Shown: piece after piece, positions 905-34,748 of the stretch | Position numbering within the stretch: position 1 is the first letter of the stretch | Layout: each line of letters opens with the position of its first letter | Source: Candidatus Levyibacteriota bacterium | GTDB lineage: Bacteria > Patescibacteriota > Microgenomatia > Levybacterales > UBA12049 | Direction: 5' to 3' | NCBI GenBank assembly: GCA_963790825.1 | Contig: CAWBPM010000003.1 | Span: 56,353-120,352 of the forward strand | Length of the DNA stretch: 64,000 nucleotides | Program-made: the position numbers and the translations under genes | The notes under the pieces: generated by a model | The model's database searches: none | What the model was told of the DNA's origin: nothing | What the model saw: the letters and a program-made list of their open reading frames with translations, nothing else

Positions 905-1960
905 TTACTTTCCTCCCACTATTTTCCCGTAGACTCTGAGGGTTTCTTCTGCTGTTTTTTTCCAACTGAATTTCTCCGCTTGTTTTAGTCCCTTCTCTGA
1001 TAATTTTTTTTGTAATTCCGGAGTAAAATAAATTTCACCAATACCATTAGCTATACTCTCGCTATCATACGCATCCACATAATAGGCAGCTTCCTCTGCT
1101 ACCTCGGGAATTGATCCTTCCTGACTGGTAACAACCGGTACACCACATTGCATTGCCTCAAGAATAGGTAATCCAAATCCTTCATACAGAGATGGCATTG
1201 CAAAAACGGAAGCCATATTATAAAGTGTTACTAAATCAGACATTGGAACAAAACCCAAACGGATAATACGCTGATCGTTTTTTGCAATTTTTTGAACAGT
1301 TATTAAATCTTTATTCCACTCGTTGGTTTTATCAAAATTCTCATCTCCCAGTGTTTTTCCAACCATAACGAGTGTTAAGTTAATTTGCTGTATCGCTTCA
1401 ATAAGCCTGGGTAAATTTTTATTCCATGTCCCATCCCCCACATAAAGAACAAATTTCTCAGGAACACCATATTTGTTTCTCATTTTATCTGCTGTTTTTT
1501 CTGAAACTGTTATTTTTTTATATGCGACACCGGGCGCCAAATAAACAACGCTGATTTTATTGGGACCTACTCCAACGATTCGTTCAATATCATCTTTTGA
1601 AGAGAGAGAATCGGCAATAATATGATCCACACCGCGAAGTGCCATCATCTGTATCTGCCATTTCAGATTCCCTTTAAGCCCTCTTGGGAAATACTCGGGG
1701 AAAACCAGAGGTGTTAAGTCATGAACAGTTACGACGGTTTTATGTTGTTTTTTAAACGGTAGTGTCAGAAAAAACGGATCAAAATACGGATAATGAATTA
1801 TTTGCGTATCGGATGGTATTGTCTCGCCTTTTGTAAAAAAATAATAGGTATTATCGGGAAAATATGTACAAAATGCCTGGCGAAGTTCCGCAGTGTAAAA
1901 GCCGGTACCCCGGACTTTATGACCTGTCTGTGTTGGAGATATATCAAATGCGATTTTCAT
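905..1960 (-). CDS. Glycosyltransferase family 4 (GT-B, group 1)
   Basis: The C-terminal GFGLPILEAMQCGVPVV...EGSIPEV block is the canonical GT1/GT4 signature. The ORF is 351 aa with a TAA stop. Confidence 0.8.
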   Translation of the reverse strand: MKIAFDISPTQTGHKVRGTGFYTAELRQAFCTYFPDNTYYFFTKGETIPSDTQIIHYPYFDPFFLTLPFKKQHKTVVTVHDLTPLVFPEYFPRGLKGNLKWQIQMMALRGVDHIIADSLSSKDDIERIVGVGPNKISVVYLAPGVAYKKITVSEKTADKMRNKYGVPEKFVLYVGDGTWNKNLPRLIEAIQQINLTLVMVGKTLGDENFDKTNEWNKDLITVQKIAKNDQRIIRLGFVPMSDLVTLYNMASVFAMPSLYEGFGLPILEAMQCGVPVVTSQEGSIPEVAEEAAYYVDAYDSESIANGIGEIYFTPELQKKLSEKGLKQAEKFSWKKTAEETLRVYGKIVGGK

Positions 1961-1968
1961 TCTTTATA

Positions 1969-3558
1969 TATATTAGCATAAATAGTTTCCTACTTTTACC
2001 TCTTACGCGCTATTTATATCACCAATTGAAATATTTGCGTGTTTAAGTAAGGTTATAATTTCCGGATTATCAGTCTGAGTATATTTAGAGAAAACTTCCC
2101 CACTCACCGGATCTTTCAGAACAACCTCTTTGACAGAATCAAGCAAATCAATAACTTTCTGAAGCGATTTGCCTGTCGTATGCTCTACGTATCTTGTAAT
2201 CGCAAGGCCAGCAAATACGACTGCGATATGTGCCTCAATTTTCTCACGAACAGCATGAAAGATCGGTCTGGCTTTTAGATCCGATTTACTGATTCGAAAG
2301 CTTCTCTCAACCCGCCGTAAGGATGCGTATTTACTAATAATTTCCTTATCACTAAGCTTTTTCGCATTGGTTACGTAGCCTTTTAATCCTTCAAGTTGGG
2401 TAGCTTTCTTTATGTTTGCTTGATTTAGTTCCCATCTATCCTTTCCCGCTCTTTTTAAAAATTTATAATGTTTACTAATTGTTGCAGGATTTGCTAATAC
2501 AAGCTTTGCTCTTATTACTTGTTTATTCAGGACTGTCCGGTCTTTATTAGCCCGTTTGGTTGAATAACCAACGACTAAAATCCGTCCCTGCCCAAGGTTA
2601 AATCGGCGGGAACTACCATCTGTTCGCTCTGTGTCTCCTACCACTTGGTAGAATATGTTTTGAGAAAAATCACCAAGTTTTGTTCCGACAATAAATTTTA
2701 TTCCGGCGGTATCTAAATCATCCAGGTTTTTACTAGTTACCATTGCGCTATCTGCAACAAAGACAAAATCTTTCAGTTGATGATTATTAATAATATCCCG
2801 TATACAGGGAATCATTGTCTGTCCTTCAAATTTGTTTCCGGGAAATACTTTAACCTGGAGAGGAAATCCTTGCGTGGTAACTGCTAACGTAATTACAAGT
2901 TGCGGCCGGTTATTTTTCTTGTATTTAGAATATCTATACTTTCCAAGATCATCTTTATCAAATGCTTGGTAGTGAAGAGTTGTGACAGCAAAAAACAAAA
3001 CAGAAGTATTTTGTAAAAGCACTGTAGTTGCCGCCTTCCATACGCTTTGTTCTAATGCTTTTTGATACTGTAACCTATAAGCTTTCTCCATTTCTAGATA
3101 TAACATTGTTAAGGAATATTTGTGGTATAGCTTGGTTTCTAACCACTCACGGGTCTTAATTTTACTGACCGGGTGGACAATACGGGCGATTACCAAATCC
3201 CTAAAACAGGCATCGGTAAAACTATGAAAACCAAGAGATTCATAAAAATAGTTGAAGAAGCGAAAGGTAACCGAATCAAAAGCACCAACAGCCAGAAGAT
3301 GGGATAAAAAACGACTCATTTCCGATTGGGTGTATTTGCTATCAAAAAAAGAAATTTTGCCGGATTTAATTCTTACCTCATCAATATATTGCCTTGCAAG
3401 CTCTGTTAATTGCTGTACTTCCAAACTGTTTCTCGCTGTTCCCAGATGCTTTACCAACCGATTGTTGCTATTAACCTTTTTAACTACTTGAATTTGAATA
3501 TTACCATTCCTGCTTTTCAGCCTTCTGATAAACACGAAACTATTATATCAAATAAGAA
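1969..3558 (-). mobile_element. IS1634-like (IS4 superfamily) insertion sequence; ends approximate
   Basis: Contains an intact 510-aa DDE transposase. Candidate imperfect terminal inverted repeats are ataaatagtttcc (1979-1991) and gaaactattatat (3537-3549). The outer end lies only ~9 bp from the GT4 start codon. Confidence 0.45.
2003..3535 (-). CDS. IS4/IS1634-family DDE transposase (GTG start)
   Basis: The C-terminal LRRVERSFRISKSDLKARPIFHAVREKIEAHIAVVFAGLAI block matches the conserved IS4/IS1634 region (E..FR..K..L..RP..H....I.AH). The size fits IS1634-type transposases. Confidence 0.7.
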   Translation of the reverse strand: MFIRRLKSRNGNIQIQVVKKVNSNNRLVKHLGTARNSLEVQQLTELARQYIDEVRIKSGKISFFDSKYTQSEMSRFLSHLLAVGAFDSVTFRFFNYFYESLGFHSFTDACFRDLVIARIVHPVSKIKTREWLETKLYHKYSLTMLYLEMEKAYRLQYQKALEQSVWKAATTVLLQNTSVLFFAVTTLHYQAFDKDDLGKYRYSKYKKNNRPQLVITLAVTTQGFPLQVKVFPGNKFEGQTMIPCIRDIINNHQLKDFVFVADSAMVTSKNLDDLDTAGIKFIVGTKLGDFSQNIFYQVVGDTERTDGSSRRFNLGQGRILVVGYSTKRANKDRTVLNKQVIRAKLVLANPATISKHYKFLKRAGKDRWELNQANIKKATQLEGLKGYVTNAKKLSDKEIISKYASLRRVERSFRISKSDLKARPIFHAVREKIEAHIAVVFAGLAITRYVEHTTGKSLQKVIDLLDSVKEVVLKDPVSGEVFSKYTQTDNPEIITLLKHANISIGDINSA

Positions 3559-3593
3559 GTCGTCTAGAACGTTTCCGAGTTCTAGAAACGATC

Positions 3594-4760
3594 GCACCCC
3601 CCTGTAAGGTTTAATTAGGTACAATTCACTTCCTGAGGTAAGAGAGGGGGTGAATTATGAAACACAAAAAGATAACGCAAACGGAACGGGAATTGTTAGG
3701 CCAGTGGAAGAAGGAAGGAGTAGCGAATAAAGAAATCGCCAGAAGACTGTCTCGTCCCGTCTTGACTATTCGTCGTGAGTTGAAAAGGAATAAAACCAAA
3801 GTTGCTGTTGGCAAAGAGTGGGAATGGATCTACGAACCAATCCATGCCCAGCATGTCGCGATGGAACGGAAACAAAATGCATGGTTGGCTAAAGAGCCGT
3901 TGAAAAACAAAAAAGTATACAAATACGTCATTGACCATCTTCGCGAGAGTTGGAGCCCTGAACAAATATCAGGAAGGCTCAAACATGAAGATCATCCGGA
4001 TGATAAGTCGTGGCATATCTGTATGGAAACCATATACGCTTTTATCTACAAAGAAAAAACTGATATAACAAAACAAGGAATTAAACAACAAAGCATATTT
4101 AATAAACATCTGGCTGGAAAAGACAGAACGGTGGTAACAGTAACGGACTTTGACCGACCATTATACGAGTATTTGAGGCGGAAACAGACAAGACGACGGA
4201 AAAGAAACGGCAGGAAAGTTCATAGGTCACATATACCTGATCGCGTCAGTATTCATAAAAGGCCATTGATTGTCGCCAGACGAAAACAATTTGGTCACTG
4301 GGAAGGAGACAGTATTGTTGGAGATAAACACGCCTCAGGGTTACATACAGAATATGAACGGGTTTCAAGCCTTACCCGATTTGAGCGGATGGTTCGGATA
4401 ACAGCGGCAGATACAGTTATTGCCGGTAAGAAAATATTTAGTCCCTTCCCTGAAAAAGCAAGGCGATCAACAACGCTTGATAACGGACCGGAAAACCATG
4501 GACATACAGAGCTTAAGAAAGACCTATCCATGCAGACATATTTTGCAGATCCATATTCCTCCTGGCAACGAGGAGGAAATGAGAATGCAAATCTTTGGAT
4601 CAGATACTACTTTCCAAAAGGGACTGATTTTAGTACAATCTCAGATGAAGAATTAAAAGACGTTCAGGATGAAATAAACAACCGTCCCAGAAAACGTCTT
4701 AAATTCAGAACGCCTCAGGAAGTATTTTCTGAGTACCTCAATAAACCCTAAAGGGGTGCA
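3594..4760 (+). mobile_element. IS30-family insertion sequence
   Basis: Imperfect ~24-bp terminal inverted repeats: gcacccccctgtaaggttta (3594-) and its counterpart ataaaccctaaaggggtgc (-4760). The transposase stop codon lies inside the right IR, as is typical for IS30. The length of ~1.17 kb fits the family. Confidence 0.55.
3657..4751 (+). CDS. IS30-family transposase (N-terminal HTH plus DDE domain)
   Basis: Carries the GHWEGDSIVG motif, the TLDNGPENHGH motif and the RGGNENANLWIRYYFPKGTDF block that ends with the catalytic Glu region. The ORF is 364 aa. Confidence 0.85.
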   Translation: MKHKKITQTERELLGQWKKEGVANKEIARRLSRPVLTIRRELKRNKTKVAVGKEWEWIYEPIHAQHVAMERKQNAWLAKEPLKNKKVYKYVIDHLRESWSPEQISGRLKHEDHPDDKSWHICMETIYAFIYKEKTDITKQGIKQQSIFNKHLAGKDRTVVTVTDFDRPLYEYLRRKQTRRRKRNGRKVHRSHIPDRVSIHKRPLIVARRKQFGHWEGDSIVGDKHASGLHTEYERVSSLTRFERMVRITAADTVIAGKKIFSPFPEKARRSTTLDNGPENHGHTELKKDLSMQTYFADPYSSWQRGGNENANLWIRYYFPKGTDFSTISDEELKDVQDEINNRPRKRLKFRTPQEVFSEYLNKP

Positions 4761-4827
4761 TTAGTTCCTAGAATACGGGGTTAAAACTAAACAATATTAC
4801 GACACAGAGGACGGTGCAAGCTGGAAA

Positions 4828-6465
4828 TTATTTGTTTTCATAAATATTCCAAATTGTACGCAGCGCTTCTCCTCTGTCAAGTACTTTTACAGAAGGAGGA
4901 TTGGAATAATGACATTTACTGTCAAGTGAGATATAGAGAGTGTGTTTTGCTAAGAAATATCTGGTATCGCCTTTTCCATTATGTAAGCAATCCTGCATCA
5001 TAGCTATGTTATCAATTTTCATGGGATTTTGCTTCCAAATTTTTTGAACTATAGCCGGATCGGTTTGACTAAACATCCCATACTGCAGTAAAAAATCTCT
5101 GTTTGAAGAATCAACGATATAAATATTGGCATAAAGTTTTTTATTGTCGTTTATCACTTTTACTATATCACGATTACTTGCTCCCCAGGTTTCCGCACCA
5201 TAAACACTCCATCTACAGTAATATTGATAAAGGTATTCGCAAATTAAAAAGGAATAAAAAATAATAAAGATTGATAATAAAATAATTTTATAGCCTTTGC
5301 TCATTCCCCATATTTTTTTGATCAGCCAGTAAATACCTATAGAAATAATAATTATAAGCACAGGAAGCAGCATAAAATCTCTAATTACAAAATTCGCATC
5401 TGTGGTGAATGCTGATGGCATTGGACTTATTAACAATAAGGCTAGCAAGAAATTCCGGTTAAATTTATTCCTCGAAAGCAAAAGTTGATAAATACCAATT
5501 AGCAGTAAGGGTAGCTCGATTATGTATAATTCTCCCCTATTATATATGTTCTGTATCTGAGATGCGTTCCCAACCTCCCCGTATAAAAACAAAAAGTTTG
5601 TTGAGAAAACCTCAAGGTAATGTTCCCTTATTACTCTGAGATAGTATAATGGTTTATTACTAAGCACACTTCTGATTATCCAAGGCGCAGTATTCTTATC
5701 TCTTTCCCAATTTACAGTACTGGTAGACTGTAAGTGGCCAAAAAGACTGACATCTGTTTGTCTGGTTACATTTTCAAATTTTACTACTAGCAAAAATGAG
5801 ATGACTGTCAGAAATGCTACAGAAATAAAAATAAATAGCTGCTTCTTTCTTACCAACAAATCTTTTCGAAACAGAAAGAGCAATATTGGTATCAGGAATA
5901 TAAAATATACCTTTGTTGCATGGTAACTATAAAACCCTAATAGAAAAGGGATAAGAGACCAGAGATACTTATTGTTTTTACTATTTACTATAAAGATATA
6001 AATTGCCAAGAGGTAGAAAAATGATGCGAAATTGACGTCCCATAACCCCCTTTGCAGTTGTAATGCCCAAGGAGAAACAGCAAATAGCAGAGCACTTATT
6101 ATACTTACCCATTTATTTTTAAACAGATAATCAGTTAATAAAAATAGCACTATTACAGAGCCAAAACCAAGTAAGGCCGAAGGTAGTCTGCCAGTGAAAA
6201 GATTTATACCCATCATTCCAACAAACGGAGAGGTTAAATATACCGGTACCGGAGATTCGGATGAATGAGCATTAAAAGAAAGTGGGAGAGTGTTTCCTTC
6301 AATACTTTTTCCCGTATGCCAAATACTATATGCATTGTAAATATAAAACGTTTCATCATCGGGAGAACCGAACGGAATATTTCCCAACTGGTATAACCTC
6401 AGAAAAAAAGCTATGAGGAAAACCAGGATTAAGATAGATTCCCAATGTAATAATTTTTTCAGAAT
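4828..6465 (-). CDS. PMT/ArnT-like GT-C glycosyltransferase (GT39/PMT_2 type); probably initiates at a non-canonical ATT codon
   Basis: The track ORF starts at TTG 6387 (MGNIPFGSPDDE). The in-frame upstream stretch ILKKLLHWESILILVFLIAFFLRLYQL encodes TM1 and the conserved FLRLYxLGNIP motif seen in all paralogs. The next upstream in-frame triplet is TAA. A strong Shine-Dalgarno AAAGGAGGAA lies 9 nt before ATT (6463-6465). Confidence 0.6.
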   Translation of the reverse strand: MLKKLLHWESILILVFLIAFFLRLYQLGNIPFGSPDDETFYIYNAYSIWHTGKSIEGNTLPLSFNAHSSESPVPVYLTSPFVGMMGINLFTGRLPSALLGFGSVIVLFLLTDYLFKNKWVSIISALLFAVSPWALQLQRGLWDVNFASFFYLLAIYIFIVNSKNNKYLWSLIPFLLGFYSYHATKVYFIFLIPILLFLFRKDLLVRKKQLFIFISVAFLTVISFLLVVKFENVTRQTDVSLFGHLQSTSTVNWERDKNTAPWIIRSVLSNKPLYYLRVIREHYLEVFSTNFLFLYGEVGNASQIQNIYNRGELYIIELPLLLIGIYQLLLSRNKFNRNFLLALLLISPMPSAFTTDANFVIRDFMLLPVLIIIISIGIYWLIKKIWGMSKGYKIILLSIFIIFYSFLICEYLYQYYCRWSVYGAETWGASNRDIVKVINDNKKLYANIYIVDSSNRDFLLQYGMFSQTDPAIVQKIWKQNPMKIDNIAMMQDCLHNGKGDTRYFLAKHTLYISLDSKCHYSNPPSVKVLDRGEALRTIWNIYENK

Positions 6466-6555
6466 TTATTAATTCCTCCTTTCATGGGAATCAAAAACCT
6501 GTATCTCTTAGGTATACATTTACATTCTACGACAATCAACAGTAACTCTACAATA

Positions 6556-7419
6556 TTACTTTTTCTTCTGTAATTTTATATATGCCCTCGGAAAACGAAG
6601 TGCTGAGAAAAAAGAGAAGATAATTCCCCGGTATCCATCCAATATGCCTTTATGCCGAATTTGAGTTGAAAGAAACCAACCTACCGGCTTTATTAGCAAA
6701 TAATCTAACGCATTGAGTGGATTTCTACCTATTTTTTCCTGTTGCAAATCTTTTGCGAGTAAATCAATATAGCGGTTATTTCTGGTTAAATACCTTTTAA
6801 ATGTCGGTGAGTCTTTGTGCAGTAGTGGATTTTGCAGCCAGCCCACTCTTCCATTCACTACCATTTGCTCATGGACATTTTTTGCCGGTAAATATGCTTT
6901 TCCTTTTCTTATCAAGCGAATAACACCATCCGGATAAACACCTCCAAAACGTAAATATCTTCCCAGGAAAAAATTCAGCCGGGGAATAAAAAAAGCGACA
7001 AATGGTCCATTTTTTGTACCGATCTCTCCGTCTCGTCTCTCAAGTAATTTTTGATGTCTAAGAAATAATTTTTTGTCGGGTAAATTCTTTTGATATTCTT
7101 CAATTTCCAATTCGCTGAGAGAAAGAATTTTTTCGATTTCGTGTGTAAGTTCTTTTGTCACCCGCTCATCGGCATCGAGCTGCAAAATCCAATCCTTTGT
7201 AGCCATATCTATCGCTTTTTGTTTATTGATATGGAAAATTGAAGGATTGTCGGTAACAAGTATCTTTGCATGAAATTTTTTCGCAATTTCGACAGTCTTA
7301 TCTGTTGAAGAACCATCGACAACGACAATCTCAGATACGATATCCTTTACGGAGTTTAAACAATCTGCTATATTTTCTTCCTCATTAAATGTCGCAAGTG
7401 CCACTGTTAAAGCTGCCAT
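6556..7419 (-). CDS. Glycosyltransferase family 2
   Basis: The N-terminus reads ATFNEEENI...VVVDGSSTDKT...QLDADE, giving GT-A DxD-type motifs. Confidence 0.8.
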   Translation of the reverse strand: MAALTVALATFNEEENIADCLNSVKDIVSEIVVVDGSSTDKTVEIAKKFHAKILVTDNPSIFHINKQKAIDMATKDWILQLDADERVTKELTHEIEKILSLSELEIEEYQKNLPDKKLFLRHQKLLERRDGEIGTKNGPFVAFFIPRLNFFLGRYLRFGGVYPDGVIRLIRKGKAYLPAKNVHEQMVVNGRVGWLQNPLLHKDSPTFKRYLTRNNRYIDLLAKDLQQEKIGRNPLNALDYLLIKPVGWFLSTQIRHKGILDGYRGIIFSFFSALRFPRAYIKLQKKK

Positions 7420-7461
7420 AACTCTTCTTCAGTATAGCCAATCCGAACTGGACAAACAAGC

Positions 7462-8940
7462 TTAGCGTTCCCTTTCTTGAATAGTAATACCACTTTTCAG
7501 TTTCCACTCTTGCCTGATTACTCCATCATGTTCACGGAGTTTGATCCAGTCTAGAAGAAGTGTTGGGTGTTCTGTATCAGGTTCAATAATGACAAAGAGT
7601 AGTTTTTCTTTTTTTATCGAAGGAGCGTAATGGTAAACCCTTGGTCCATACCAGGAAAAAAGATATTGATAAGGATAATCATAAATTGGTGGGGTGTAAA
7701 CAATCTCGTTAAACGGCTGGCCGTGAGCTTTTTGATAGACTAAATCTAAAACCGCTAATTGATTGCGGTATACGGATGCGTCGCCGATATAAAGAGGTTG
7801 CTGATAACTTTTTATAAGTTGTATCGGCTGAAGATTTATCAATGAGAGGATAAAAAGAGAGATAACAAATAATATATTGCCAAAACGGAGATGTTTTCTC
7901 GTTTGATTAAGAATAATCCCCAGTGCCAGAATATAAAACATTGGCAGACCGATTAGATAATGTGACCAAATATCGTGTTTAAAAAAGGAAATACCGATTA
8001 TAAAAATAGCAATCGTAATCAAGGATAAAAAGAGTAGCTGTTGTTCTTTTCCCCTTACTTTTCTGGCAAAAATAATCAGTAGCGCAAATAAAATAATAAG
8101 TAAAACAATACCTGCTAAATGGGATGGTCCTGCCAGTGCATCGGAAAACTGGTTGAAGAAAATAGCATCTTTAACAAAAAGCGGCGAAGATGAGCTGCCG
8201 GAGGTATTCCCTATTTGTGCCAGCATATTAATAATTGCTTTTGTCATGAGAAATTGATGACGAAATTCAAATAGTATTCGCGGTGAGAATATAAGAAGTA
8301 ACCCGGCAACAAAGAACACTACTTGTCTCGTAAAAACCTTTCTTCTGGCAACAATAGGCAGTCCAATACAATACGATACGAACAGTAATAGTCCAAAAAC
8401 GATTTCCGTATCAATGAGAAGTCCGGAAAGAACACCCAAGAAAAAAAACATTAATTTCCCGGGTTTTTCCAGAATCCGCAAAATAACAAGTAAAGACAAC
8501 GCAATATAAAAAGGAGCAACGTCTGGATTCCAGATTTGACTGCTTAAACCAATAAGTACCGGAGAAAAACTGACCAGCAAGGCAAGTGTAATTCCAAGAT
8601 AGGTGCCATCGGTTTTTTTACCGACATAATACATGAGAAGAATTGTTACTATACCCAGTAAAGCGATAAATGATGCCACAAATCTGGGATCTCCACCCGA
8701 CAGCACAAATGAAGGAACAAGTAAAAAATACCACCAAGGACCATAAAAAATACCCGGCATACCTGTCGTAAAGCCGATAAGTGGAATTTTATAATGGTAA
8801 ACGATTTGTTGAAGCGCCAGCATATCCCGTCCCACATCATACGTAAACGCGAAAGAGTTTGTTACTGTACCATTAATTCTAAGTAAGATGCCTATTAGCA
8901 AAATAATAAAAAGAATAATGGGTGGAAGTTTTCTTTTCAT
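7462..8940 (-). CDS. Polytopic membrane protein, GT-C-like (putative polyprenyl-phosphate-sugar dependent glycosyltransferase)
   Basis: Has more than 10 predicted TM helices, a conserved TYDVGRDM loop after TM1 and a soluble C-terminal domain. It is embedded in the glycosylation operon. Confidence 0.45.
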   Translation of the reverse strand: MKRKLPPIILFIILLIGILLRINGTVTNSFAFTYDVGRDMLALQQIVYHYKIPLIGFTTGMPGIFYGPWWYFLLVPSFVLSGGDPRFVASFIALLGIVTILLMYYVGKKTDGTYLGITLALLVSFSPVLIGLSSQIWNPDVAPFYIALSLLVILRILEKPGKLMFFFLGVLSGLLIDTEIVFGLLLFVSYCIGLPIVARRKVFTRQVVFFVAGLLLIFSPRILFEFRHQFLMTKAIINMLAQIGNTSGSSSSPLFVKDAIFFNQFSDALAGPSHLAGIVLLIILFALLIIFARKVRGKEQQLLFLSLITIAIFIIGISFFKHDIWSHYLIGLPMFYILALGIILNQTRKHLRFGNILFVISLFILSLINLQPIQLIKSYQQPLYIGDASVYRNQLAVLDLVYQKAHGQPFNEIVYTPPIYDYPYQYLFSWYGPRVYHYAPSIKKEKLLFVIIEPDTEHPTLLLDWIKLREHDGVIRQEWKLKSGITIQERER

Positions 8941-8944
8941 ATAC

Positions 8945-13798: not shown

Positions 13799-13867
13799 AG
13801 TATAGAATACCTAATTTTCTCACTATTTAAATATCATAGCGGAATTTTCTTTTCCACTCTAGACAAT

Positions 13868-14578: not shown

Positions 14579-14649
14579 TAAGCTAGAATACCTCTTCTGT
14601 GAAAAATAATTTTTTTATTGTGATTTAGACTATAAAACTGATGTTTATC

Positions 14650-16959: not shown

Positions 16960-16971
16960 ATTAATCTTCGA

Positions 16972-18067: not shown

Positions 18068-18352
18068 TTGCTAAGCTTTAAAAGTTTTGCTAGTATTACA
18101 GGTGTGAATAATAATCTTAACCCTGAAATTATCATAGCAGGCATACTGGCTACTATTTGGGAACTTCTCTGGAAAGGATTGGCACTTTGGCGCTCGGCAA
18201 GGCTTGGGCAACGGAATTGGTTTATCGTTTTTATTATTCTTGTACTTATTAACACACTTGGGATTGTTGAAATTATTTATTTATTCCGCTTTGCTAAAAA
18301 ACGTATGACAGTAAAAGAACTCCGGTTTTGGGAATATATTTCCTTTAAATAA
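18068..18352 (+). CDS. Small two-TM membrane protein (hypothetical; TTG start)
   Basis: It is the only plus-strand ORF inside the minus-strand operon. It has two clear hydrophobic helices (IIIAGILATIWELLW and WFIVFIILVLINTLGIVEIIYLF) and no ATG start, so it remains uncertain. Confidence 0.3.
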   Translation: MLSFKSFASITGVNNNLNPEIIIAGILATIWELLWKGLALWRSARLGQRNWFIVFIILVLINTLGIVEIIYLFRFAKKRMTVKELRFWEYISFK

Positions 18353-18366
18353 GACTGCACAACGCA

Positions 18367-19137: not shown

Positions 19138-19153
19138 ATGCGATAACTATCCT

Positions 19154-20059: not shown

Positions 20060-20061
20060 GT

Positions 20062-23891: not shown

Positions 23892-23908
23892 AAGTTAAGA
23901 TGAAAAAG

Positions 23909-27216: not shown

Positions 27217-28904
27217 TGTCGTTCGATCAAAATATATGCTGGTTCATTATAGGGATAAGTGATAATATTTTGGCCGTCGAGTGAAACAACATTCCTCATC
27301 GGATAATAAAATGTTTTAATTATTCCGGCATCCAGCGGTAGTTGTTTTCTGTTTGTAATATATAAAGTATTTTTCTCTAAATTAGTAGTCTCATCAATTG
27401 TTTGATACTCAAATTTCCCTGCTTTTGCAAGCGTTACTAACGCGCCGTCTTTTCGATATATTGCTTGTTTTTGATAAGTAGCCGGATCATAACCGCTATA
27501 GAAAAGAAGCGAGGTATAAGAGAAGTCTGTTGATGTGTCAAAAATAATTTTGTTGTATGTTTTTTGATGCTGCATTATATATGTAACAACCTCCGGGTCG
27601 GGAGATCGCCAAGATTGGGCACCAGTTATAGGAAATTGATAGAGGTAAGAAGCGAGAAAATATATGACAGCGTAAAAAACGATAAGGCAGCTTATTATAG
27701 TAGTGATATTTTTTATAAAAGTCATTTTTATTGTACGAATTTTCAGCCAAAGATGTACAATACCGACTGCAGAAAAAATTGTAAACGGCAAAAGAACAAG
27801 GTAGTTTCTCGTCGGTTGCGGTACATCAATGATAAGACAACCAACAATAAGTACCACTGCAAACCATATATATATTGGCTGCCAATATTTTTCTTTTGAT
27901 TTCAGCATGATAAAAAAACCGTATGGTATTGTTATCGCCTCAAAGATGTAAAACATTCCCACATTTCCTATTCCATCAATTAGGTTATCTGCACCATGAA
28001 CAAAGAAAAAATCAACAGAAAAGAATCTGACATAATTGGTAAAATATTGCCAAATAATAAGCGTCCAATTATTAAAAAACAATTTTATGATAGGCAGCGG
28101 AAGCGGAGACAGATTGCTGCGAAAATTAAGGTTTGTCACACGAAAAACATGGCCGATGAGAAGCAGGTCCTGCTGATTATTTATTCCGGACTGAGAAAAT
28201 AGAGTCAGTATGAGGGGAAGTATAGTAACAATTGCAAAAGACAGTGCAGCGACCAGCGCCTTTTTATTAAACCGCATGATGTCCTTCCGGTAAAATAACA
28301 ATAGCAGGACAAAGAGTAACGGCGAGGTAACCCGTGTAACATTATAGGTGTACATCGCAATACCAAACGTGATTATAGACAAAAAAAGGTAGATAATTTT
28401 TTGGGACTGCATACTTTTTATCAACATCCAGACGCCAAGCAATGTAAACATAAACGCCACATTTACTTCAAATGCAGCTCGCGAAAAAAAGATATGCCAT
28501 GGGTTAATTGCCAGTAGCGCAGAAGCAGTTATCGCTATCGCAGTTCGTTTGCTAAGATCTTTGAGGAAAAAATACAAAAAGAGTACAGTAAAAAATCCGG
28601 AAATTGCAGAAAAGAAACGAATGGCAAACGGAGTCATTCCAAACAGTTTTATCGATGCCACAGTCGTATAAATATAAACCGGCAATTTATAGTCATTGAA
28701 CGACTTAAAATACAAAGGCATTTTCACTCCGTATTCATCCCGCCCGGTTTTAAGAATTGAGTATGCGTTGTACCCTATTGCAGTCTCGTCTTTATTTAAT
28801 CCGTTTGGTATTTGGTCAAGATGGTAAAAGCGGAGAAAAAACGCGGAAAAAAATATCAGCAGTAACAACAAGGTGGAATAGCTAATGCGAATGCGGTTAT
28901 TCAT
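27213..28904 (-). CDS. PMT/ArnT-like GT-C glycosyltransferase (GT39/PMT_2)
   Basis: The N-terminus reads FLRFYHLDQIPNGLNKDETAIGYNAYSILKTGRDEYGVKMP. Confidence 0.75.
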   Translation of the reverse strand: MNNRIRISYSTLLLLLIFFSAFFLRFYHLDQIPNGLNKDETAIGYNAYSILKTGRDEYGVKMPLYFKSFNDYKLPVYIYTTVASIKLFGMTPFAIRFFSAISGFFTVLFLYFFLKDLSKRTAIAITASALLAINPWHIFFSRAAFEVNVAFMFTLLGVWMLIKSMQSQKIIYLFLSIITFGIAMYTYNVTRVTSPLLFVLLLLFYRKDIMRFNKKALVAALSFAIVTILPLILTLFSQSGINNQQDLLLIGHVFRVTNLNFRSNLSPLPLPIIKLFFNNWTLIIWQYFTNYVRFFSVDFFFVHGADNLIDGIGNVGMFYIFEAITIPYGFFIMLKSKEKYWQPIYIWFAVVLIVGCLIIDVPQPTRNYLVLLPFTIFSAVGIVHLWLKIRTIKMTFIKNITTIISCLIVFYAVIYFLASYLYQFPITGAQSWRSPDPEVVTYIMQHQKTYNKIIFDTSTDFSYTSLLFYSGYDPATYQKQAIYRKDGALVTLAKAGKFEYQTIDETTNLEKNTLYITNRKQLPLDAGIIKTFYYPMRNVVSLDGQNIITYPYNEPAYILIERQ

Positions 28905-30426
28905 GTAATTTATAGACAGTCAAATAGTTATTTGTGCCTCTTTGGATTTGCAGTACCGGAGTAAGCGGCCAACTAAGAGGTGCTATACCCGCAACAGGAC
29001 ACATAGGACACGGCTGATAAAATACGACGTAGACACTCTCCTGACGACCGGCAGCAATTAGATTTTTTAGTGCAAGGTCATTAACCGGCCAAAAGCCTTT
29101 AATTGTTATGTTGGGATTTTTAATCAGATAAAGCTCGTAGGATGCCGGCATCAAGCCAAATGTTCCCTCGGTAGTGATATAAATCTTTTCTTTTTGTGCT
29201 TGCGCAGTGAAAAATGCAATTGATTCTTTTATTCCACCACCCGAGGGCCAATCAGTACTGTATTGGGTTATATCTGAGTTTGGAATCGGTGAGGAGGAAA
29301 AATTAGTCAGTATTAAAACGTCAGTAGCTATTGTATAGAAAAAAAGGGCGATGAGAAGCGCAACTTGTAAAATTTTAGAGCGAAAGTAAGATAAGTAATT
29401 TGTGTAGATACGAGCCAGGCTATAAGCAATAAGCGGCAGAAGAGACAGTGTCATGAAGAGAATAAAACGGGGATAGATAACTTTTCCAAATAATGCCAGT
29501 CCAATAAACGGAATAATAAACCATAAAAAAAGCAGTACCTTTTCTCTTAAAAATTTCCAGTCAATCAGAAATGCTCCTACTGCAAGAAGTATATAAACGA
29601 TCCCCATATAAGTAACAAACCAGCTTACCTGTCCGGTTAGGTTACCAAAGAAAAAAGTAAGTGGATGCCTCAGCCAATCCGATAAGGGATAAACAAATGT
29701 CGCATTCTTCTGCGCAATTATATGAAAAAACGGCGAGAGTCGAAGTACGTTGTAAAATGCATATGTCAATATAGTCGTAATGATTGCCAGTCCTGTCCAT
29801 TTGAGAAACCTGGTAAACTTTTCTTTCTTTTTGAGATCAAAGAGTATGAGGGAAAAAGGCAGAAGATAAATGTTAAAAAAGCCATTCGATTTATTGAGAA
29901 CACTGGCACCGGTTATAAAAGATAAAATAAGTGCCAGATCAAGCCGTATATAGCGGATTAATAGAATCTCCAGGTATAGTCCCCATACGGTAAATGTACC
30001 AATTAAATCATCATAGAGTGCCATCCTGTCATAAACCAAACCGAATGGATAGATAACATAGAGAAATGCGGCAATGATGCCTACCCACTTGTTTTTAAAT
30101 GTCTCGCGACCCAAGAAGAACAGTCCGAGTGCGGTAAAAAATCCTGCCACTGTGGAAACAAATCTTCCGGCAAAAAGCGGATCATGAAATATTATCAGGA
30201 AAGAGCTTACTAACCAGATAAAAAGCGGTTGTTTTCCGTCGGTCAGTGAAATAAAACGCCAATTAGGATCTTGCCGGGCAATTTGCGCCCAGCGTAGGTA
30301 AATTGCTTCATCGGTAAAAATCGGAAGATTCGTGAGGTGAAAAAGCCGCGTAGCAAAATAGACAAGTACGAGAATTGCACCAATCAGAAGTTCCAGTTTA
30401 TACCTTCGGAAAAAGGCCATAATCAT
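28897..30426 (-). CDS. ArnT/PMT-like GT-C glycosyltransferase (GT39/GT83-like)
   Basis: The N-terminus reads ATRLFHLTNLPIFTDEAIYLRWAQ, a DE motif after TM1. It has a polytopic topology and overlaps the downstream gene by 8 bp. Confidence 0.65.
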   Translation of the reverse strand: MIMAFFRRYKLELLIGAILVLVYFATRLFHLTNLPIFTDEAIYLRWAQIARQDPNWRFISLTDGKQPLFIWLVSSFLIIFHDPLFAGRFVSTVAGFFTALGLFFLGRETFKNKWVGIIAAFLYVIYPFGLVYDRMALYDDLIGTFTVWGLYLEILLIRYIRLDLALILSFITGASVLNKSNGFFNIYLLPFSLILFDLKKKEKFTRFLKWTGLAIITTILTYAFYNVLRLSPFFHIIAQKNATFVYPLSDWLRHPLTFFFGNLTGQVSWFVTYMGIVYILLAVGAFLIDWKFLREKVLLFLWFIIPFIGLALFGKVIYPRFILFMTLSLLPLIAYSLARIYTNYLSYFRSKILQVALLIALFFYTIATDVLILTNFSSSPIPNSDITQYSTDWPSGGGIKESIAFFTAQAQKEKIYITTEGTFGLMPASYELYLIKNPNITIKGFWPVNDLALKNLIAAGRQESVYVVFYQPCPMCPVAGIAPLSWPLTPVLQIQRGTNNYLTVYKLHE

Positions 30427-30479
30427 ATCTTTAAATTATACATAAAAGCAGAGACGAGGAGCAAATGTAAGGTTCTCTC

Positions 30480-31667
30480 TCACGCAGTTGCCTGTCTTCT
30501 TTTTACTACTTTCATGACTCCTACAACAAGTGCGGACACGACGATTCCTGTGAGTTCAATATCTATGAGAATTTGAGGAACCGGATTGTTCCAGTTACCC
30601 AAAAACAAAAAGGGTACATAGATTAAAAGTGCAAAGAAAGGTAAGATAATGCCGGGTATAAGAACATATTGTTTTTTACTGATCAATGCAGCAAAAGGTA
30701 GCACGTAAAGCAAATACCAGGGCTGAAAATTAGTTCGGACACTAGCTATAATCGTAGCTAAAGTCATAAAAAGAACTATCACTAAAAATAATTTATCCCA
30801 GGAAAGCTGTTTATTCTGTTTTTCCGAGTAGTGAATATATAAGAAAACCGGCAAAAGCAGACCGGTTGCGAACTTTATGGCAAAGGAGACCAGAAGCAGT
30901 AACCAGAAAGTAATATATTTTTTTGTAAGCAGCAAATACACAGCAAAAACGGCAAAAAACAGCATGACGATATCATTATGCGCCGATACCAAACTTTCGA
31001 TAAGAACTAAGGGGTTTAATGCAAAGAAAACGAGGCTAAAAAGTTCTTGATTTGCTGCAAGTTTTTTCTGTATTTTTCCGATGAAATAAACCGTTCCCAG
31101 AAAACTCCCAGCCATAAGAAGTTTAAAAAGAAAAAAAGTCAATAAAAAAATATGGAAGCCTAAAAAAGACAATGGTACAGTAAGCACAAGCCACATAGGG
31201 CCATAAGGATAGGTTCTCTGTGTCCAGTGCATAAACCCAAGCATGGGATCCGACGTATAATCAAGAGCCTTATGCTGATATGGATTTTGCTGATAGAAAG
31301 TTACAATTTTGGCATCAAAAATATAGTTGAATAAGTCGTAAGAAAAAGCGTTATAGGAAAAAGCTAGAATAACAGTCGTAATAATAACTGTCAGCCAGAT
31401 AAGCTTTCGGCTCAGCAGTCTTTTATAAGCAAGAATCAGAAACAAACCGTAAAAAATAAAAAGCAGGAGGATGATGCCGATATACAAAGCGGTTGATAAC
31501 GGCCTCTCAAAGTAGCCGACATATTGAAATGCATTCTCAATTGCGTGTAACGATTTAATTTTAATAATTGTCAGTCCCAGGTCGGTTTGCGTAAATGAGT
31601 ATAAAAATAATGCCAGAATTAGGAAAAGATAAGAAAAAACGAGCAGCAGTACCTTATTTTTAAACAT
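30480..31667 (-). CDS. Polytopic membrane protein, GT-C-like (DUF2029/GT87-like candidate)
   Basis: Has ~10 TM helices and the block HWTQRTYPYGPMW. The track start at 31736 overlaps the upstream GT2. The ATG at 31667 (MFKNKVLLL) is more likely. Confidence 0.4.
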   Translation of the reverse strand: MFKNKVLLLVFSYLFLILALFLYSFTQTDLGLTIIKIKSLHAIENAFQYVGYFERPLSTALYIGIILLLFIFYGLFLILAYKRLLSRKLIWLTVIITTVILAFSYNAFSYDLFNYIFDAKIVTFYQQNPYQHKALDYTSDPMLGFMHWTQRTYPYGPMWLVLTVPLSFLGFHIFLLTFFLFKLLMAGSFLGTVYFIGKIQKKLAANQELFSLVFFALNPLVLIESLVSAHNDIVMLFFAVFAVYLLLTKKYITFWLLLLVSFAIKFATGLLLPVFLYIHYSEKQNKQLSWDKLFLVIVLFMTLATIIASVRTNFQPWYLLYVLPFAALISKKQYVLIPGIILPFFALLIYVPFLFLGNWNNPVPQILIDIELTGIVVSALVVGVMKVVKRRQATA

Positions 31668-31671
31668 GTAG

Positions 31672-32433
31672 TTATAAATTTTTATATTTTCCGCTAATGA
31701 CGTTCTTTTTAATTTTGAGAAGGTCGAGTATGCCAAAAATCGAATCCTGAATCGGATTTACCCGTCTGCTTTCGACATATAGCCACGTTACAGGTACTTC
31801 TTTAATTTTATATCCCATAATTTCTGCGAGATATAAAAGCTCTACATCAAATCCGGATGAAACGCTCGATCCGGAAATTTGCGAAAAACCATGATGAATC
31901 TTACTAACTCTTTCAAATAATTTTTTTGCGGTAACATTACGAAACATTTTAAATCCACACTGGGTATCCGATATGTCGGTAAGTCCGACGATAAGTTTTC
32001 TCAGAACAATACTGGAAAGAGAAATAAATTTTCGAGTCACCGGAGCACCTTTACGCTGTCCTTTTCGTGAGCCGATAACGATTTCGTAGTCTTGGTCAAA
32101 GAACGGAAGAAGTTTATTAACCTCCTCGATCGGTGTCGCCTGGTCCATGTCGGTAAAAAGGATAAGACTTCCCTTTGCCGCCAATACTCCGGTTGTTACT
32201 GCGCCTGCTTTTCCCGAATGTTTATTTTCTATGAGTTGAAAGGCAGGATTCTCATGCGTAAATTGCCTGATGAATTCAGTACTTCCATCTCTTGATCCAT
32301 CGTCGACAATAATTACTTCGTATGCAAAGTTATCGTTGTCAAGAAATCTTTTGACTTTATCTAAGACGCCTTTTTGCAAATTTGCCATCTCATCAAAACA
32401 AGGGATGACAACGGAAAGATATATTGAACTCAC
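31672..32433 (-). CDS. GT2 polyprenyl-phosphate sugar synthase (DPM1-like)
   Basis: The N-terminus reads LSVVIPCFDEMANL...VIIVDDGSRDGS...GKAGAVTTG...LFTDMDQATP. Confidence 0.8.
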   Translation of the reverse strand: MSSIYLSVVIPCFDEMANLQKGVLDKVKRFLDNDNFAYEVIIVDDGSRDGSTEFIRQFTHENPAFQLIENKHSGKAGAVTTGVLAAKGSLILFTDMDQATPIEEVNKLLPFFDQDYEIVIGSRKGQRKGAPVTRKFISLSSIVLRKLIVGLTDISDTQCGFKMFRNVTAKKLFERVSKIHHGFSQISGSSVSSGFDVELLYLAEIMGYKIKEVPVTWLYVESRRVNPIQDSIFGILDLLKIKKNVISGKYKNL

Positions 32434-32497
32434 AGATGAATTATACTAGAAAATTGCTTCGGAACAAATAAGCATTTGCTCCGTTTAAAATTTGTTG

Positions 32498-33049
32498 TTA
32501 ATTAAGTAAGATCGTTGTACGGTCTAACCAATACCGCCCTTTAAGCAAAGCAGCATCTGCGCCGTTATAATCAAAAAAGCCATTACCTGTCACTTCTATT
32601 AAATCTGAGGAGGGAAGAAGAAAGATAAGATTTACAGTCTTTGGATCGATTTGATAGAGCAGGAAATTTTTTCCCTGAAGAATGGCTTTATCTGTCGGGA
32701 CGCTACTTATGTTCAATATACTTTTTAATGACGGTTGAGACACAAGACTGTCGCTGCTCGTTAAATGGGATGATGAAAATTTAGAGAAGGTTAAGCCCTT
32801 ATAACCCGCTTTGGTACTTCCAAAACTACTTCGTTCTAAAACAAATGAACCGGGACCGTAAAAATCTCGAAATTGCCAGAACACTTTAGGATCAATCTCA
32901 CCTTTTCCGCGAACATCCTGCACAAATTGTAAATATCTCGCTTGCCTTACGCTTGGGAATAAACCAGAAGAAATTTTTGGCTGCAGTAAAAGTAATAAGA
33001 CAATAATAAGAACGCCGCCGAGGATATAGTAGCCATAGATCAGTTTCAT
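32498..33049 (-). CDS. Hypothetical secreted or membrane-anchored protein
   Basis: Has an N-terminal hydrophobic helix (YILGGVLIIVLLLLL). No recognisable domain was found. The ORF is 183 aa. Confidence 0.35.
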   Translation of the reverse strand: MKLIYGYYILGGVLIIVLLLLLQPKISSGLFPSVRQARYLQFVQDVRGKGEIDPKVFWQFRDFYGPGSFVLERSSFGSTKAGYKGLTFSKFSSSHLTSSDSLVSQPSLKSILNISSVPTDKAILQGKNFLLYQIDPKTVNLIFLLPSSDLIEVTGNGFFDYNGADAALLKGRYWLDRTTILLN

Positions 33050-34748
33050 GTATAATCGTATTATATACGAAATGATAAGGGTAAATAAAATTGATCTGCT
33101 AAACGGGATTATTGTTGCTACTTTGGCAGTTTTTCTCGTATTGGATTTATTTATACATGCAGGAGAACCTACTACGTTTGACGGCAGAATTCACATTACG
33201 AATATTGCGCAGTATACGCAGGCCGTAAGAGACGGAGAATTTCCTGTTCGCTGGGCAGACGGATTAGCGAATTACGGCATGCCAATGCCTATTCTTGCAC
33301 AACAAACAACCAATTATCTTGGGGTACTTCTGATGTTTCTTATACATAACGCGCTACTTACAGATAAATTGCTTTTTCTTGTTGGTTCAATCCTTGCCAG
33401 CATTTTTCTCTACTGGTTTCTCCGCCTCCATTTTCAATTACTTCCTGCTTTTTTAGGCACGTTTTTGTTTACATTCGCACCTTACCGTATTTTTGATATC
33501 TATGTGCGCGGAGACTTGCCGGAATTTTTTGCCAGTGTTTTTATCATCCTTGTTCTTATTGGCTTGTATTACACGGTTAAAACACAAAAGATTACTGCCT
33601 GGTTATTGTTAACTATTGCCGTGGCGCTGCTTTCGTACACGCACCCACCTTCACTTCTTATTAGTATGTTCATTATTATTCCGTATGCCACTTTGCTTCT
33701 TTTGACTAGTAAGCAAAAACGGATGCATCTTTTACAAATCGTGTCGGCATTTTTCTTGGGAGTCGGACTTTCTGCATTGTATGTAGTACCTTTGCTCTCC
33801 GAGATGAAGTATTTTTATTACGGACTTACCCCAAACCATTTAGTACCCAATCAATTCTTAGGACTTACCAATTTCCTGGGTCCCGGTTGGTATTATTTCT
33901 ATAAAGATAGTCCGTTTTTACGGGGGAATTTTATTTCCGCAGGACTTCTGGAAACAATAATTATTCTCGTTGGTCTTTGTTTTTCAATTATTCTTTATGA
34001 AACAAAGCACCGGGTTGATAAACTCCTGGCATTTTCTCTTTGCAGCTCAGTGCTGGTAATTTTTATGCTGACGGCAATGTCAAGCATATTGTATGAAAAA
34101 GTTAATCTTTTAAATTCTCTTCAGTTTCCCTGGAGAATGCTTATTGATCTTAATATCTTTGTTCCGATTGTTTTCGCCGTTGTTTTGAGTTATGTCAAAA
34201 AGTATCAGTATATATTGTGCCTTCTTCTCATCGTACTGATTGCCTACTCACGTTTTCCTCAAATCTACGGCAAGAACTATGTTGAGCATTCGGAGCAGTA
34301 CTACACCTTTACTAAGGAAAATCTTTATGCAGTTATTTTTAATACTATCTGGAGCGGAAAATCCACTGATTATGCAGTGGAAAAGAATAAACCGGCTGTT
34401 ATCGAGGGGAAAGGGTTAATCAGCGAAGAACATGTACTGAATGCATCTCGTCTTTACACTGTTAACGCACAAACGCCACTTCGGATGGTTGATTATACTT
34501 TTTATTTTCCGGGCTGGCGGGTTTTTATTGATGGTAATTCTGTTCCCATTCAGTTTCAAGATCCCCGGTATCGCGGCGTAATTACTTATAATGTGCCTTC
34601 CGGCTTGCACCATATCTTTATCCAATTTGGCGATACGAAAGACAGATTGGTCGGAATATTTATTTCAGCCGGATCTTTGCTTGCTATAATAGGACTATTC
34701 CTGGTTTTCTTTATTATAAAGAAAAAGAAAAGTATAACTAATAACTAA
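33048..34748 (+). CDS. Uncharacterised polytopic membrane protein, GT-C-like; paralog family member 3
   Basis: The N-terminal region reads HAGEPTTFDGRIH...GEFPVRWADGLANYGMPMP...FAPYRIFDIYVRGDLPEFFAS. It is transcribed divergently from 32498-33049. A later in-frame ATG at 33072 is also possible. Confidence 0.5.
   Translation: MYNRIIYEMIRVNKIDLLNGIIVATLAVFLVLDLFIHAGEPTTFDGRIHITNIAQYTQAVRDGEFPVRWADGLANYGMPMPILAQQTTNYLGVLLMFLIHNALLTDKLLFLVGSILASIFLYWFLRLHFQLLPAFLGTFLFTFAPYRIFDIYVRGDLPEFFASVFIILVLIGLYYTVKTQKITAWLLLTIAVALLSYTHPPSLLISMFIIIPYATLLLLTSKQKRMHLLQIVSAFFLGVGLSALYVVPLLSEMKYFYYGLTPNHLVPNQFLGLTNFLGPGWYYFYKDSPFLRGNFISAGLLETIIILVGLCFSIILYETKHRVDKLLAFSLCSSVLVIFMLTAMSSILYEKVNLLNSLQFPWRMLIDLNIFVPIVFAVVLSYVKKYQYILCLLLIVLIAYSRFPQIYGKNYVEHSEQYYTFTKENLYAVIFNTIWSGKSTDYAVEKNKPAVIEGKGLISEEHVLNASRLYTVNAQTPLRMVDYTFYFPGWRVFIDGNSVPIQFQDPRYRGVITYNVPSGLHHIFIQFGDTKDRLVGIFISAGSLLAIIGLFLVFFIIKKKKSITNN

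Follow-up and report, generated by a model that had tools for sequence, protein, structure and literature searches.

A conserved Levybacteria locus of 22 glycosylation genes with a probable role in building a cell-envelope glycan

Introduction

Why a bacterium of the Candidate Phyla Radiation (CPR) should gather 22 glycosylation genes at a single locus, and what acceptor receives the sugars, is the question raised by a stretch of DNA from Candidatus Levyibacteriota bacterium (GenBank assembly GCA_963790825.1, contig CAWBPM010000003.1, positions 56,353 to 120,352). The window, by which the whole 64,000-nucleotide stretch is meant, carries this locus at positions 905-34748, where an initial annotation had described a glycosylation island for lipid-linked protein O-glycosylation. 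Glycosylation outside the membrane from lipid-linked donors is very probably the general mechanism, and the locus is probably a conserved cell-envelope glycan locus in which a multi-component transmembrane system makes a branched surface glycopolymer or lipoglycan as its main product.

CPR genomes are typically about 1 Mb in size, and the contig studied here alone is 418 kb long; if the genome is about 1 Mb, the locus takes up roughly 3% of it for 22 glycosylation genes. The conservation of this investment across Levybacteria speaks for a central place of the surface glycan in the life of these organisms, be it in attaching to hosts, in resisting phages or in keeping the envelope intact. The cell-envelope composition of CPR bacteria (Patescibacteria) is essentially unknown. 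To our knowledge no member of family PF10131 or of the ArnT-like clade found here has been characterised, and the diverged GT-C (glycosyltransferase fold C) enzymes of the locus make up a compact natural collection of clear targets for heterologous expression. Glycosylation processes in Saccharibacteria have been called unexplored (PMC11623550). No description of the locus was found in the literature on GT-C enzymes, GT39 enzymes or protein glycosylation in CPR, Patescibacteria, Levybacteria or Microgenomates, in a search whose coverage excluded most subscription journals.

Gene content and organization

Positions 905-34748 contain 25 open reading frames (ORFs), 22 of them glycosylation genes according to the ORF listing and the Pfam and NCBIfam scans. 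These encode 13 polytopic GT-C proteins, three GT2 proteins resembling Dpm1, ArnC and GtrB, three other GT2 proteins, two GT4 proteins and one Wzx flippase. The GT-C proteins fall into four families (eight PMT_2/ArnT-like, three PF10131, one YfhO and one MptA/B-like) and occupy 21.5 kb of coding DNA. The initial annotation was right in its total of 22, in its counts of three DPM1-type synthases, three other GT2s, two GT4s, a Wzx and a YfhO-like protein, and in calling the span almost entirely minus-strand, with 23 of 25 ORFs on that strand and only 3657-4751 and 33048-34748 on the plus strand; its gene content stands with the correction that two transposase genes (2003-3535 and 3657-4751) lie within the span. 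Genes are mostly separated by less than 20 nt or overlap, and three times a synthase gene is grouped in this tight or overlapping manner with GT-C genes on one strand, groupings that are kept in relatives. The GC content of 0.35-0.39 matches the rest of the window. In what follows, genes are named by their first coordinate.

The only sizeable gap within the minus-strand run is 318 bp of non-coding DNA at 18049-18366, between GT4-16972 and GT2-18367, matched by a gap of about 410 bp at the equivalent position in the related contig L006. An Rfam scan found only two tRNAs, and no riboswitch or small RNA in the 318-bp and 412-bp gaps.

Donor synthases

Three small GT2 proteins of 236-253 amino acids, encoded on the minus strand at 13868-14578, 21494-22210 and 31672-32433, are well supported by their sequences as members of the polyprenyl-phosphate sugar synthase class. 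Their best matches among solved proteins run across the catalytic domain: synthase 13868 aligned with PfDPMS (PDB 5mlz) over residues 1-232 (E 4.1e-15), synthase 31672 with the same protein over residues 3-166 (E 2.9e-14), and synthase 21494 with ArnC over residues 5-212 (E 1.8e-17), followed by PfDPMS, while GtrB (sll0501) came close behind the best PDB match in each case. The DxD motif is kept in all three, as DAD, DGD and DMD respectively, so that their earlier designation as DPM1-like holds. Their best NCBIfam matches were AglJ (E 5.5e-38 for 13868), PpgS, PgfS and ArnC, and all equivalog cut-offs were missed (the best score was 131 bits against 325 for AglJ), which makes them family-level relatives and not equivalogs. 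A hydropathy scan gave zero or one segment and no transmembrane helix, and the C-terminal membrane helices that PfDPMS, GtrB and ArnC possess are not present; in this the three resemble the soluble type represented by human DPM1 and Mycobacterium smegmatis Ppm1. They also resemble the soluble synthase GacI (PMC8035078). The three are 25-35% identical to one another, which suggests three different products.

The window and the independent contig L001 differ only near position 21638, within the 3' end of synthase 21494, where L001 has one extra A. The window version of this protein is 238 amino acids long (orthologs 237-239) and the L001 version 231, and the extra A reflects either variation in the population or an error of assembly.

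GT-C proteins

Eight minus-strand ORFs match PMT_2 (PF13231). Six of them exceed its gathering threshold, namely 4828-6465 (30.1 bits), 10564-12195 (35.2 bits), 12182-13798 (E 1.4e-12), 25564-27216, 27213-28904 (E 2.6e-10) and 28897-30426 (E 4.7e-9), while 7462-8940 (21.7 bits) and 8945-10567 (21.3 bits) score about 21 bits and fall below it. The Pfam PMT family (PF02366, cut-off 22.7) is exceeded by 10564 (37.8 bits), 27213 (31.7 bits, E 1.4e-7) and 12182 (24.3 bits); the other five match PMT_2 only, two of these below its cut-off. Profile searches thus did not move the proteins into an unrelated family. By BLASTP, 4828, 8945, 10564, 12182, 25564 and 27213 are full-length mutual paralogs with 26-38% identity and E-values down to 1e-89 (1.8e-89 between 8945 and 25564), with 4828 at 26-28% identity to the others. 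Homology of 28897 to these six is confined to its N-terminal 170 or so amino acids, and 7462 is a remote relative (hhalign probability 96% over 408 columns against the paralog profile). Where seven paralogs had been counted there are accordingly six of full length, a divergent protein sharing only the N-terminal module, and a more distant relative. Close homologues carry the names of CPR lineages (Levybacteria, Saccharimonadales, Parcubacteria), those in Candidatus Levybacteria being 54-65% identical, and the public annotation of the paralogs in CPR metagenome-assembled genomes (MAGs) is 'glycosyltransferase family 39 protein'.

An N-terminal signature had been described as common to all seven. 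It is real, since D38, E39, Y44, N45, A46, T52, D55 and E56 are invariant in an alignment of 31 sequences, in which the invariant acidic and basic residues are D38, E39, D55, E56, K72, R147, E151 and R370; within the locus, 28897 has kept just the first DE, and the second is missing from 4828. The K72-P-P motif aligned with the KPP motif of ArnT when the family profile was compared with the PDB. A direct sequence search of the PDB with a paralog of the clade gave no match, and the family profile reached only ArnT, marginally.

Models of the PMT_2 paralog 25564 and of the PF10131 protein 23909 were compared with solved structures, and both modelled families can confidently be read as GT-C folds, as had been anticipated. 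Besides this fold, the PMT_2 paralogs have an acidic motif (DE) in their first extracytoplasmic loop. The reciprocal TM-scores between ArnT (541 residues) and the modelled paralog (550 residues) were about 0.5. OST, ALG12 and ArnT resemble the model at least as closely as PMTs do, and PMTs are not its closest solved relatives, so that the name PMT/GT39 enzymes, given in the initial annotation, claims more than these matches and the single ArnT profile match allow. No MIR domain occurred in any Pfam scan of the locus; bacterial Pmt is not known to carry this domain either, and its absence rules out only the eukaryotic architecture.

The 4828 paralog has an unusual 5' end. Its first transmembrane helix, ILKKLLHWESILILVFLIAFFLRLYQ (window 6387-6468, minus strand), lies in frame upstream of the listed TTG start. 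No ATG, GTG or TTG precedes this helix, and the frame begins at 6465 with an ATT that immediately follows a TAA stop codon. The ATT is either a rare non-canonical start or the mark of a lost start codon in an incipient pseudogene, and from its sequence, with no canonical start codon, the paralog may be inactive.

The PF10131 family is represented by 22194-23891 (minus strand, PTPS_related E 1.6e-11, 32% identical to 23909), 23909-25567 (minus strand) and the divergently transcribed 33048-34748 (plus strand, E 4.9e-7), which has a 42% identical ortholog in L006. The family profile had no match in the PDB. The AlphaFold2 model of 23909, with a predicted local distance difference test score of 86.3, matched in a Foldseek search AglB, STT3, PglB, AftA and AftD; its C-terminal beta-sandwich, which is followed by a terminal transmembrane helix, gave partial matches to accessory domains of glycoside hydrolases, a weak hint in the model that the acceptor may be a carbohydrate. 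The YfhO-family protein is encoded at 14650-16959 (minus strand, E 7.8e-19, 68 bits). The MptA/MptB-like protein at 30480-31736 (minus strand, 12 hydrophobic segments) matched TIGR03459 with E 3.9e-13 and 49 bits, far below the equivalog cut-off of 439; PF26314 is recorded for the identical gene in the Logan assembly, and the local Pfam copy gave no match. That gene is called at 395 amino acids, against 418 for the window ORF, whose TTG start is probably placed too far upstream.

Flippase and other cytoplasmic glycosyltransferases

The Wzx/MOP-type flippase is encoded at 20062-21588 (minus strand, Polysacc_synt_3 E 1.1e-47, 163 bits). Its start probably lies about 75 nt downstream of 21588, given that orthologs and the Logan gene call have 481-485 amino acids and the ORF 508, and with the shorter start the 95-nt overlap that the ORF seems to have with synthase 21494 disappears. 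The locus has no GtrA-family gene and no room for one, and Wzx directly follows synthase 21494, here and in every relative.

The remaining glycosyltransferases, all on the minus strand, are two GT4 proteins (905-1960, Glycos_transf_1 E 6e-32, cytoplasmic and nucleotide-sugar dependent; 16972-18048, E 1.3e-20) and three GT2 proteins that form a subfamily of their own by BLASTP. These last are gt2_6556 (6556-7419, cytoplasmic, Glycos_transf_2 E 6.7e-19, 33% identical to gt2_19154), gt2_18367 (18367-19137, E 8.1e-17, 31% identical to gt2_19154) and gt2_19154 (19154-20059, E 3.3e-21). The best solved relatives of gt2_19154 are GmaR (E 6.7e-13) and then SunS, the match spanning the N-terminal catalytic domain only. 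GmaR, listed in the PDB under that name alone, is the flagellin O-GlcNAc (N-acetylglucosamine) transferase of Listeria and as such a protein O-glycosyltransferase, and SunS matches the NCBIfam 'peptide S-glycosyltransferase' family; gt2_6556 matches the NCBIfam SunS-family N-terminal domain (E 3.7e-15).

Conservation and assembly

Six genome loci from MAGs of Levybacteria and Patescibacteria share one core order in the right half of the locus, namely synthase 31672, the MptA/B-like gene, PMT_2-28897, variable GT-C genes, PMT_2-25564, two PF10131 genes, synthase 21494, Wzx and two GT2 genes, and the left half is likewise kept in eight metagenome loci. Cassettes of YfhO, PMT_2 and PF10131 genes vary among relatives, whose loci also carry genes for an acyltransferase-3, a methyltransferase, a GDP-mannose-dehydratase-type epimerase, an ABC ATPase, a phosphodiesterase and a DUF2079 protein. 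Orthologs in other Levybacteria are 42-68% identical, against 26-38% among the paralogs, which marks the paralogs as old and points to specialised functions; recent tandem amplification is ruled out on the same figures. Examples are the orthologs of 4828 (57% identity, in L011), 7462 (42-44%, in L010-L019), 10564 (50-68%) and 28897 (46-54%, in all Levybacteria loci).

The assembly was compared with independent contigs from the Logan assembly of run ERR11594402, which match the window at 1-3604, 4750-14042 and 15565-34871 with 99.995-100% identity. The two joins outside this cover, at the IS30-like gene (3604-4750) and at 14042-15565, are bridged by synteny: L010 and L015 show the order YfhO, synthase 13868 and PMT_2 genes, and L013 has gt2_6556, an epimerase, an MptA/B-like gene and gt4_905 with no insertion sequence (IS) element. 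An assembly chimera is thereby all but ruled out. So is a horizontally acquired island, with a GC content like that of the flanks and both halves syntenic in Levybacteria genomes and metagenome contigs, and the word 'island' in the initial annotation is a misnomer. The locus is old and vertically inherited, with variable cassettes.

In the syntenic loci of relatives L004-L019, several polytopic ORFs of 560-670 amino acids have neither a Pfam match nor a counterpart in the window (for example L012 3452-5446, L010 3519-5462 and L018 17730-19730). They may represent further undescribed GT-C-like families.

Proposed function

The initial annotation had proposed that sugars are loaded on polyprenyl phosphate, flipped, and transferred outside the membrane, and this part of it is well founded, given synthases with DxD motifs, a Wzx gene after one synthase, and GT-C folds. 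Gene families, folds, catalytic motifs and synteny suggest the following scheme for the donor lipids, their sugars, the flipping step, the acceptors and the product. The three soluble Dpm1/Ppm1/ArnC-like GT2 proteins (13868, 21494 and 31672) would work at the cytoplasmic face, where they would move sugars, probably three different ones, from nucleotide sugars to polyprenyl (undecaprenyl) phosphate. The lipid-linked sugars would most likely be flipped by the Wzx protein encoded after synthase 21494, by analogy with Wzx-type GacK, the proposed flippase for N-acetylglucosamine on undecaprenyl phosphate (C55-P-GlcNAc) (PMC8035078). The 13 GT-C proteins would then transfer the sugars on the outer membrane face by means of acidic catalytic residues in the first extracytoplasmic loop of each, and every old, orthologously kept GT-C paralog probably has its own linkage or its own acceptor. 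The two GT4 proteins and the three GT2 proteins of the gt2_19154 subfamily may make a cytoplasmic lipid-linked primer, which the same Wzx could export. Most of the product's assembly would take place outside the membrane, as with mycobacterial lipomannan and arabinogalactan or with the decoration of streptococcal and lactococcal wall polysaccharides, and strain-variable GT-C cassettes would give surface diversity. O-glycosylation of secreted Pro/Thr-linker proteins is a possible additional or alternative output.

A branched surface glycopolymer or lipoglycan is favoured as the main product for three reasons: 13 long-diverged GT-C proteins of four families, with an MptA/B-like member among them, fit the stepwise formation of linkages; the loci of relatives carry accessory genes of polysaccharide type; and next to the locus lie genes for a membrane-anchored GH26 protein and an epimerase. 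Mycobacterial lipomannan, lipoarabinomannan and arabinogalactan are built stepwise by many GT-C enzymes. Granted the lipid-linked mechanism, we lean slightly towards a non-protein glycan as the principal acceptor and consider a protein in that role distinctly less probable. A wider proposal, speculative and on balance rather doubtful, is that Levybacteria-type CPR bacteria build a large multi-sugar surface glycoconjugate almost wholly outside the membrane with 13 GT-C enzymes and three synthases, a counterpart of the ALG/PMT system in the lumen of the endoplasmic reticulum or of mycobacterial lipoarabinomannan and arabinogalactan, in which cassettes would diversify the glycan, possibly O-linked to Pro/Thr-linker proteins, for host attachment or phage evasion.

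Several observations weigh against a glycopolymer or lipoglycan. Neither a priming phosphoglycosyltransferase, a Wzy polymerase or O-antigen ligase, a Wzz protein, an LCP ligase nor a GtrA-type flippase was found in the 64-kb window, so that a complete polysaccharide pathway is not demonstrated; the phosphoglycosyltransferase, Wzy and Wzz genes could lie elsewhere in the genome. All curated equivalog cut-offs were missed by a wide margin, and the sequences do not reveal sugar or acceptor specificity. Scanning the entire locus for promoter and terminator consensus sites gave counts no higher than in shuffled sequence, a result that is uninformative on operon structure. The PMT_2 and YfhO families are equally compatible with protein acceptors, three nearby secreted proteins have Pro/Thr linkers, and gt2_19154 has GmaR and then SunS as its best solved relatives.

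The last three points also speak for the most serious alternative, which is the acceptor proposed by the initial annotation: PMT-like GT-C proteins would glycosylate Ser/Thr residues of secreted or surface proteins (pili, S-layer proteins, Pro/Thr-linker enzymes) and the other GT-C proteins would extend these O-glycans outside the cell. The DE motif in the first loop and the Pfam PMT scores above threshold of 10564, 12182 and 27213 agree with this, as does the finding that YfhO-family PgtC2 together with GtrB O-glucosylates Ser/Thr-rich regions of streptococcal proteins (PMC11092751). Non-protein acceptors are well documented, since PMT_2-domain GT-C proteins (GtlB, GttB) and YfhO add sugars to lipoteichoic and wall teichoic acids (PMC8035078), so that membership of these families does not settle the acceptor and the claim of protein O-glycosylation is not established. 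The fold, moreover, is no nearer to PMTs than to the other GT-C enzymes compared, with ArnT as the sole PDB profile match, and the number and variety of GT-C families and the accessory genes of relatives better suit the building of a polymer. Actinobacteria need only one Pmt for protein O-mannosylation. We regard this alternative as possible but not probable.

That the GT-C proteins, like ArnT, merely add sugars to membrane lipids or glycolipids, altering surface charge or resistance to antimicrobial peptides with no glycan being built, is very unlikely. ArnT is the only solved protein reached by the family profile, with its reciprocal TM-scores of about 0.5, and synthase 21494 is closest to ArnC; against this stand close homologues named as CPR bacteria, which are monoderm and are not known to have lipid A, the lack of the Ara4N-type (4-amino-4-deoxy-L-arabinose) genes ArnA, ArnB and ArnD in the Pfam scans of the window, and a set of 13 GT-C proteins with GT4, GT2 and Wzx proteins that far exceeds the needs of head-group modification. 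That the array is an artefact or a foreign island, whether a chimera of assembly or a region acquired or amplified recently, is barely credible despite two IS elements within the span, a tRNA-Glu at its right edge and short-read contigs that break at the IS30-like gene and at 14042-15565, because the independent contigs, the synteny bridges of L010, L015 and L013, the uniform GC content and divergent paralogs, each with closer orthologs elsewhere, tell against it.

Flanking genes and mobile elements

The cluster extends past the start of the window, where the N-terminal part of a membrane-anchored GH26 glycoside hydrolase is encoded (2-838, minus strand, Glyco_hydro_26 E 9.5e-11) by a gene running off the window. 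The full protein, encoded on Logan contig L021 at 2767-4482, has 571 amino acids with a Pro/Thr linker and a dockerin. Beyond it, to the left of the window, lie a GDT1-GH8 fusion, in which a GDT1 cation-transporter domain is joined to a GH8 glycoside hydrolase (L021 4925-6589), and a sugar-nucleotide epimerase. L021 also encodes a 385-amino-acid polytopic protein (7684-8841) with no Pfam match and a 'DAPPLGKY' motif that is reminiscent of the 'HPPLGK' motif of PMTs.

Long Pro/Thr linkers occur in three secreted proteins, namely a lamin-tail-domain (LTD) protein (39158-40282, plus strand) with about 100 amino acids of PTPT repeats, a 603-amino-acid dockerin protein (50455-52266, minus strand), and the flanking GH26-dockerin protein, which shares a C-terminal module with the dockerin protein. 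Such linkers are classical sites of O-mannosylation in actinobacteria and fungi, and the three proteins are candidate substrates for O-glycosylation. They are also a hint of cellulosome-like surface enzymes in a CPR bacterium.

The two transposase genes within the span, encoding a DDE transposase (2003-3535, minus strand, DDE_Tnp_1 E 3.7e-11) and an IS30-like transposase (3657-4751, plus strand, HTH_38 E 4.6e-10), lie back to back between PMT_2-4828 and GT4-905, as IS insertions outside the pathway. Logan contigs end at 3604 and 4750. In L013, where the GT4-905 ortholog has no intervening IS, an epimerase and an MptA/B-like gene take the place of the two transposases. Neither terminal inverted repeats nor target duplications could be made out convincingly when the surroundings of both transposases were searched for repeats. 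A third mobile-element gene (55004-56092, plus strand), encoding an rve integrase core, adjoins a response regulator and histidine kinase pair (56100-57526).

The first gene of the minus-strand run encodes the membrane-anchored 183-amino-acid protein at 32498-33049 (minus strand), which has one N-terminal transmembrane segment, a 37% identical ortholog in L006 and no Pfam or NCBIfam match. The right-hand boundary is a tRNA-Glu(CTC) at 34842-34915 (plus strand; ARAGORN and Rfam), to the right of which Pfam scans of 35161-39096 identified pyrimidine biosynthesis genes. In L006 (Levybacteria MAG MFNS01000001.1) a Lon protease gene (3-2255) stands right beside the ortholog of synthase 31672. The window has its Lon gene (47944-50331) 13 kb further to the right, with PF10131-33048, the tRNA-Glu, the pyrimidine operon and other genes in between, and this difference in placement indicates a local rearrangement.

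Comparison with known systems

The three-component systems of Gram-positive bacteria, such as CsbB-GtcA-YfhO, GtlA-GtcA-GtlB, CsdAB, CsdCD and CsdEF of Lactococcus lactis and GacI/J/K/L of Streptococcus pyogenes, likewise consist of a GT-A enzyme that makes a C55-P-sugar, a flippase, and a polytopic GT-C protein acting outside (PMC8035078). The likeness extends to the PMT_2 and YfhO families and to adjacent synthase and GT-C genes, and GacK and GacI are precedents for a Wzx-type flippase and a soluble synthase (PMC8035078). Those systems pair one synthase with one GT-C protein for a single side-chain sugar, whereas three synthases and 13 GT-C proteins share one locus here, in a CPR host with a reduced genome and with neither a GtrA-type flippase nor a GacJ-like partner.

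A Wzx/Wzy-dependent heteropolysaccharide locus is matched in its Wzx, GT4 and GT2 genes, but not in its phosphoglycosyltransferase, Wzy and chain-length regulator, which were not found in the 64-kb window. With ArnC and ArnT the locus shares the best match of synthase 21494, the profile match and KPP motif of the PMT_2 family and a similar protein size, and differs in having no Ara4N synthesis genes in the window. The eukaryotic Dpm1/PMT and actinobacterial Ppm1/Pmt pathways have in common with it a polyprenyl-phosphate sugar donor, the GT-C fold, the DE motif in the first loop and, for three paralogs, the Pfam PMT match; here, in contrast, there is no MIR domain, the fold is structurally equidistant from OST, ALG12, ArnT and PMT, paralogy is massive, and a protein is only a possible acceptor.

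The mycobacterial and corynebacterial pathways with Ppm1, PimE, MptA/B/C, Emb/Aft and Pmt resemble the locus in a soluble Ppm1-like synthase, in many GT-C enzymes with one linkage each, in the MptA/B-like member, and in the presence of AftA, AftB and AftD among the structural matches. The MptA match falls far short of its equivalog cut-off (49 against 439 bits), no genes for phosphatidylinositol mannosides, decaprenyl-phospho-arabinose or galactan were seen in the window, and the mycobacterial GT-C genes are scattered round the genome, whereas those described here form one locus. The components are thus all of known families, and what is unusual is their scale and arrangement, three synthases and 13 GT-C enzymes in one conserved CPR locus.

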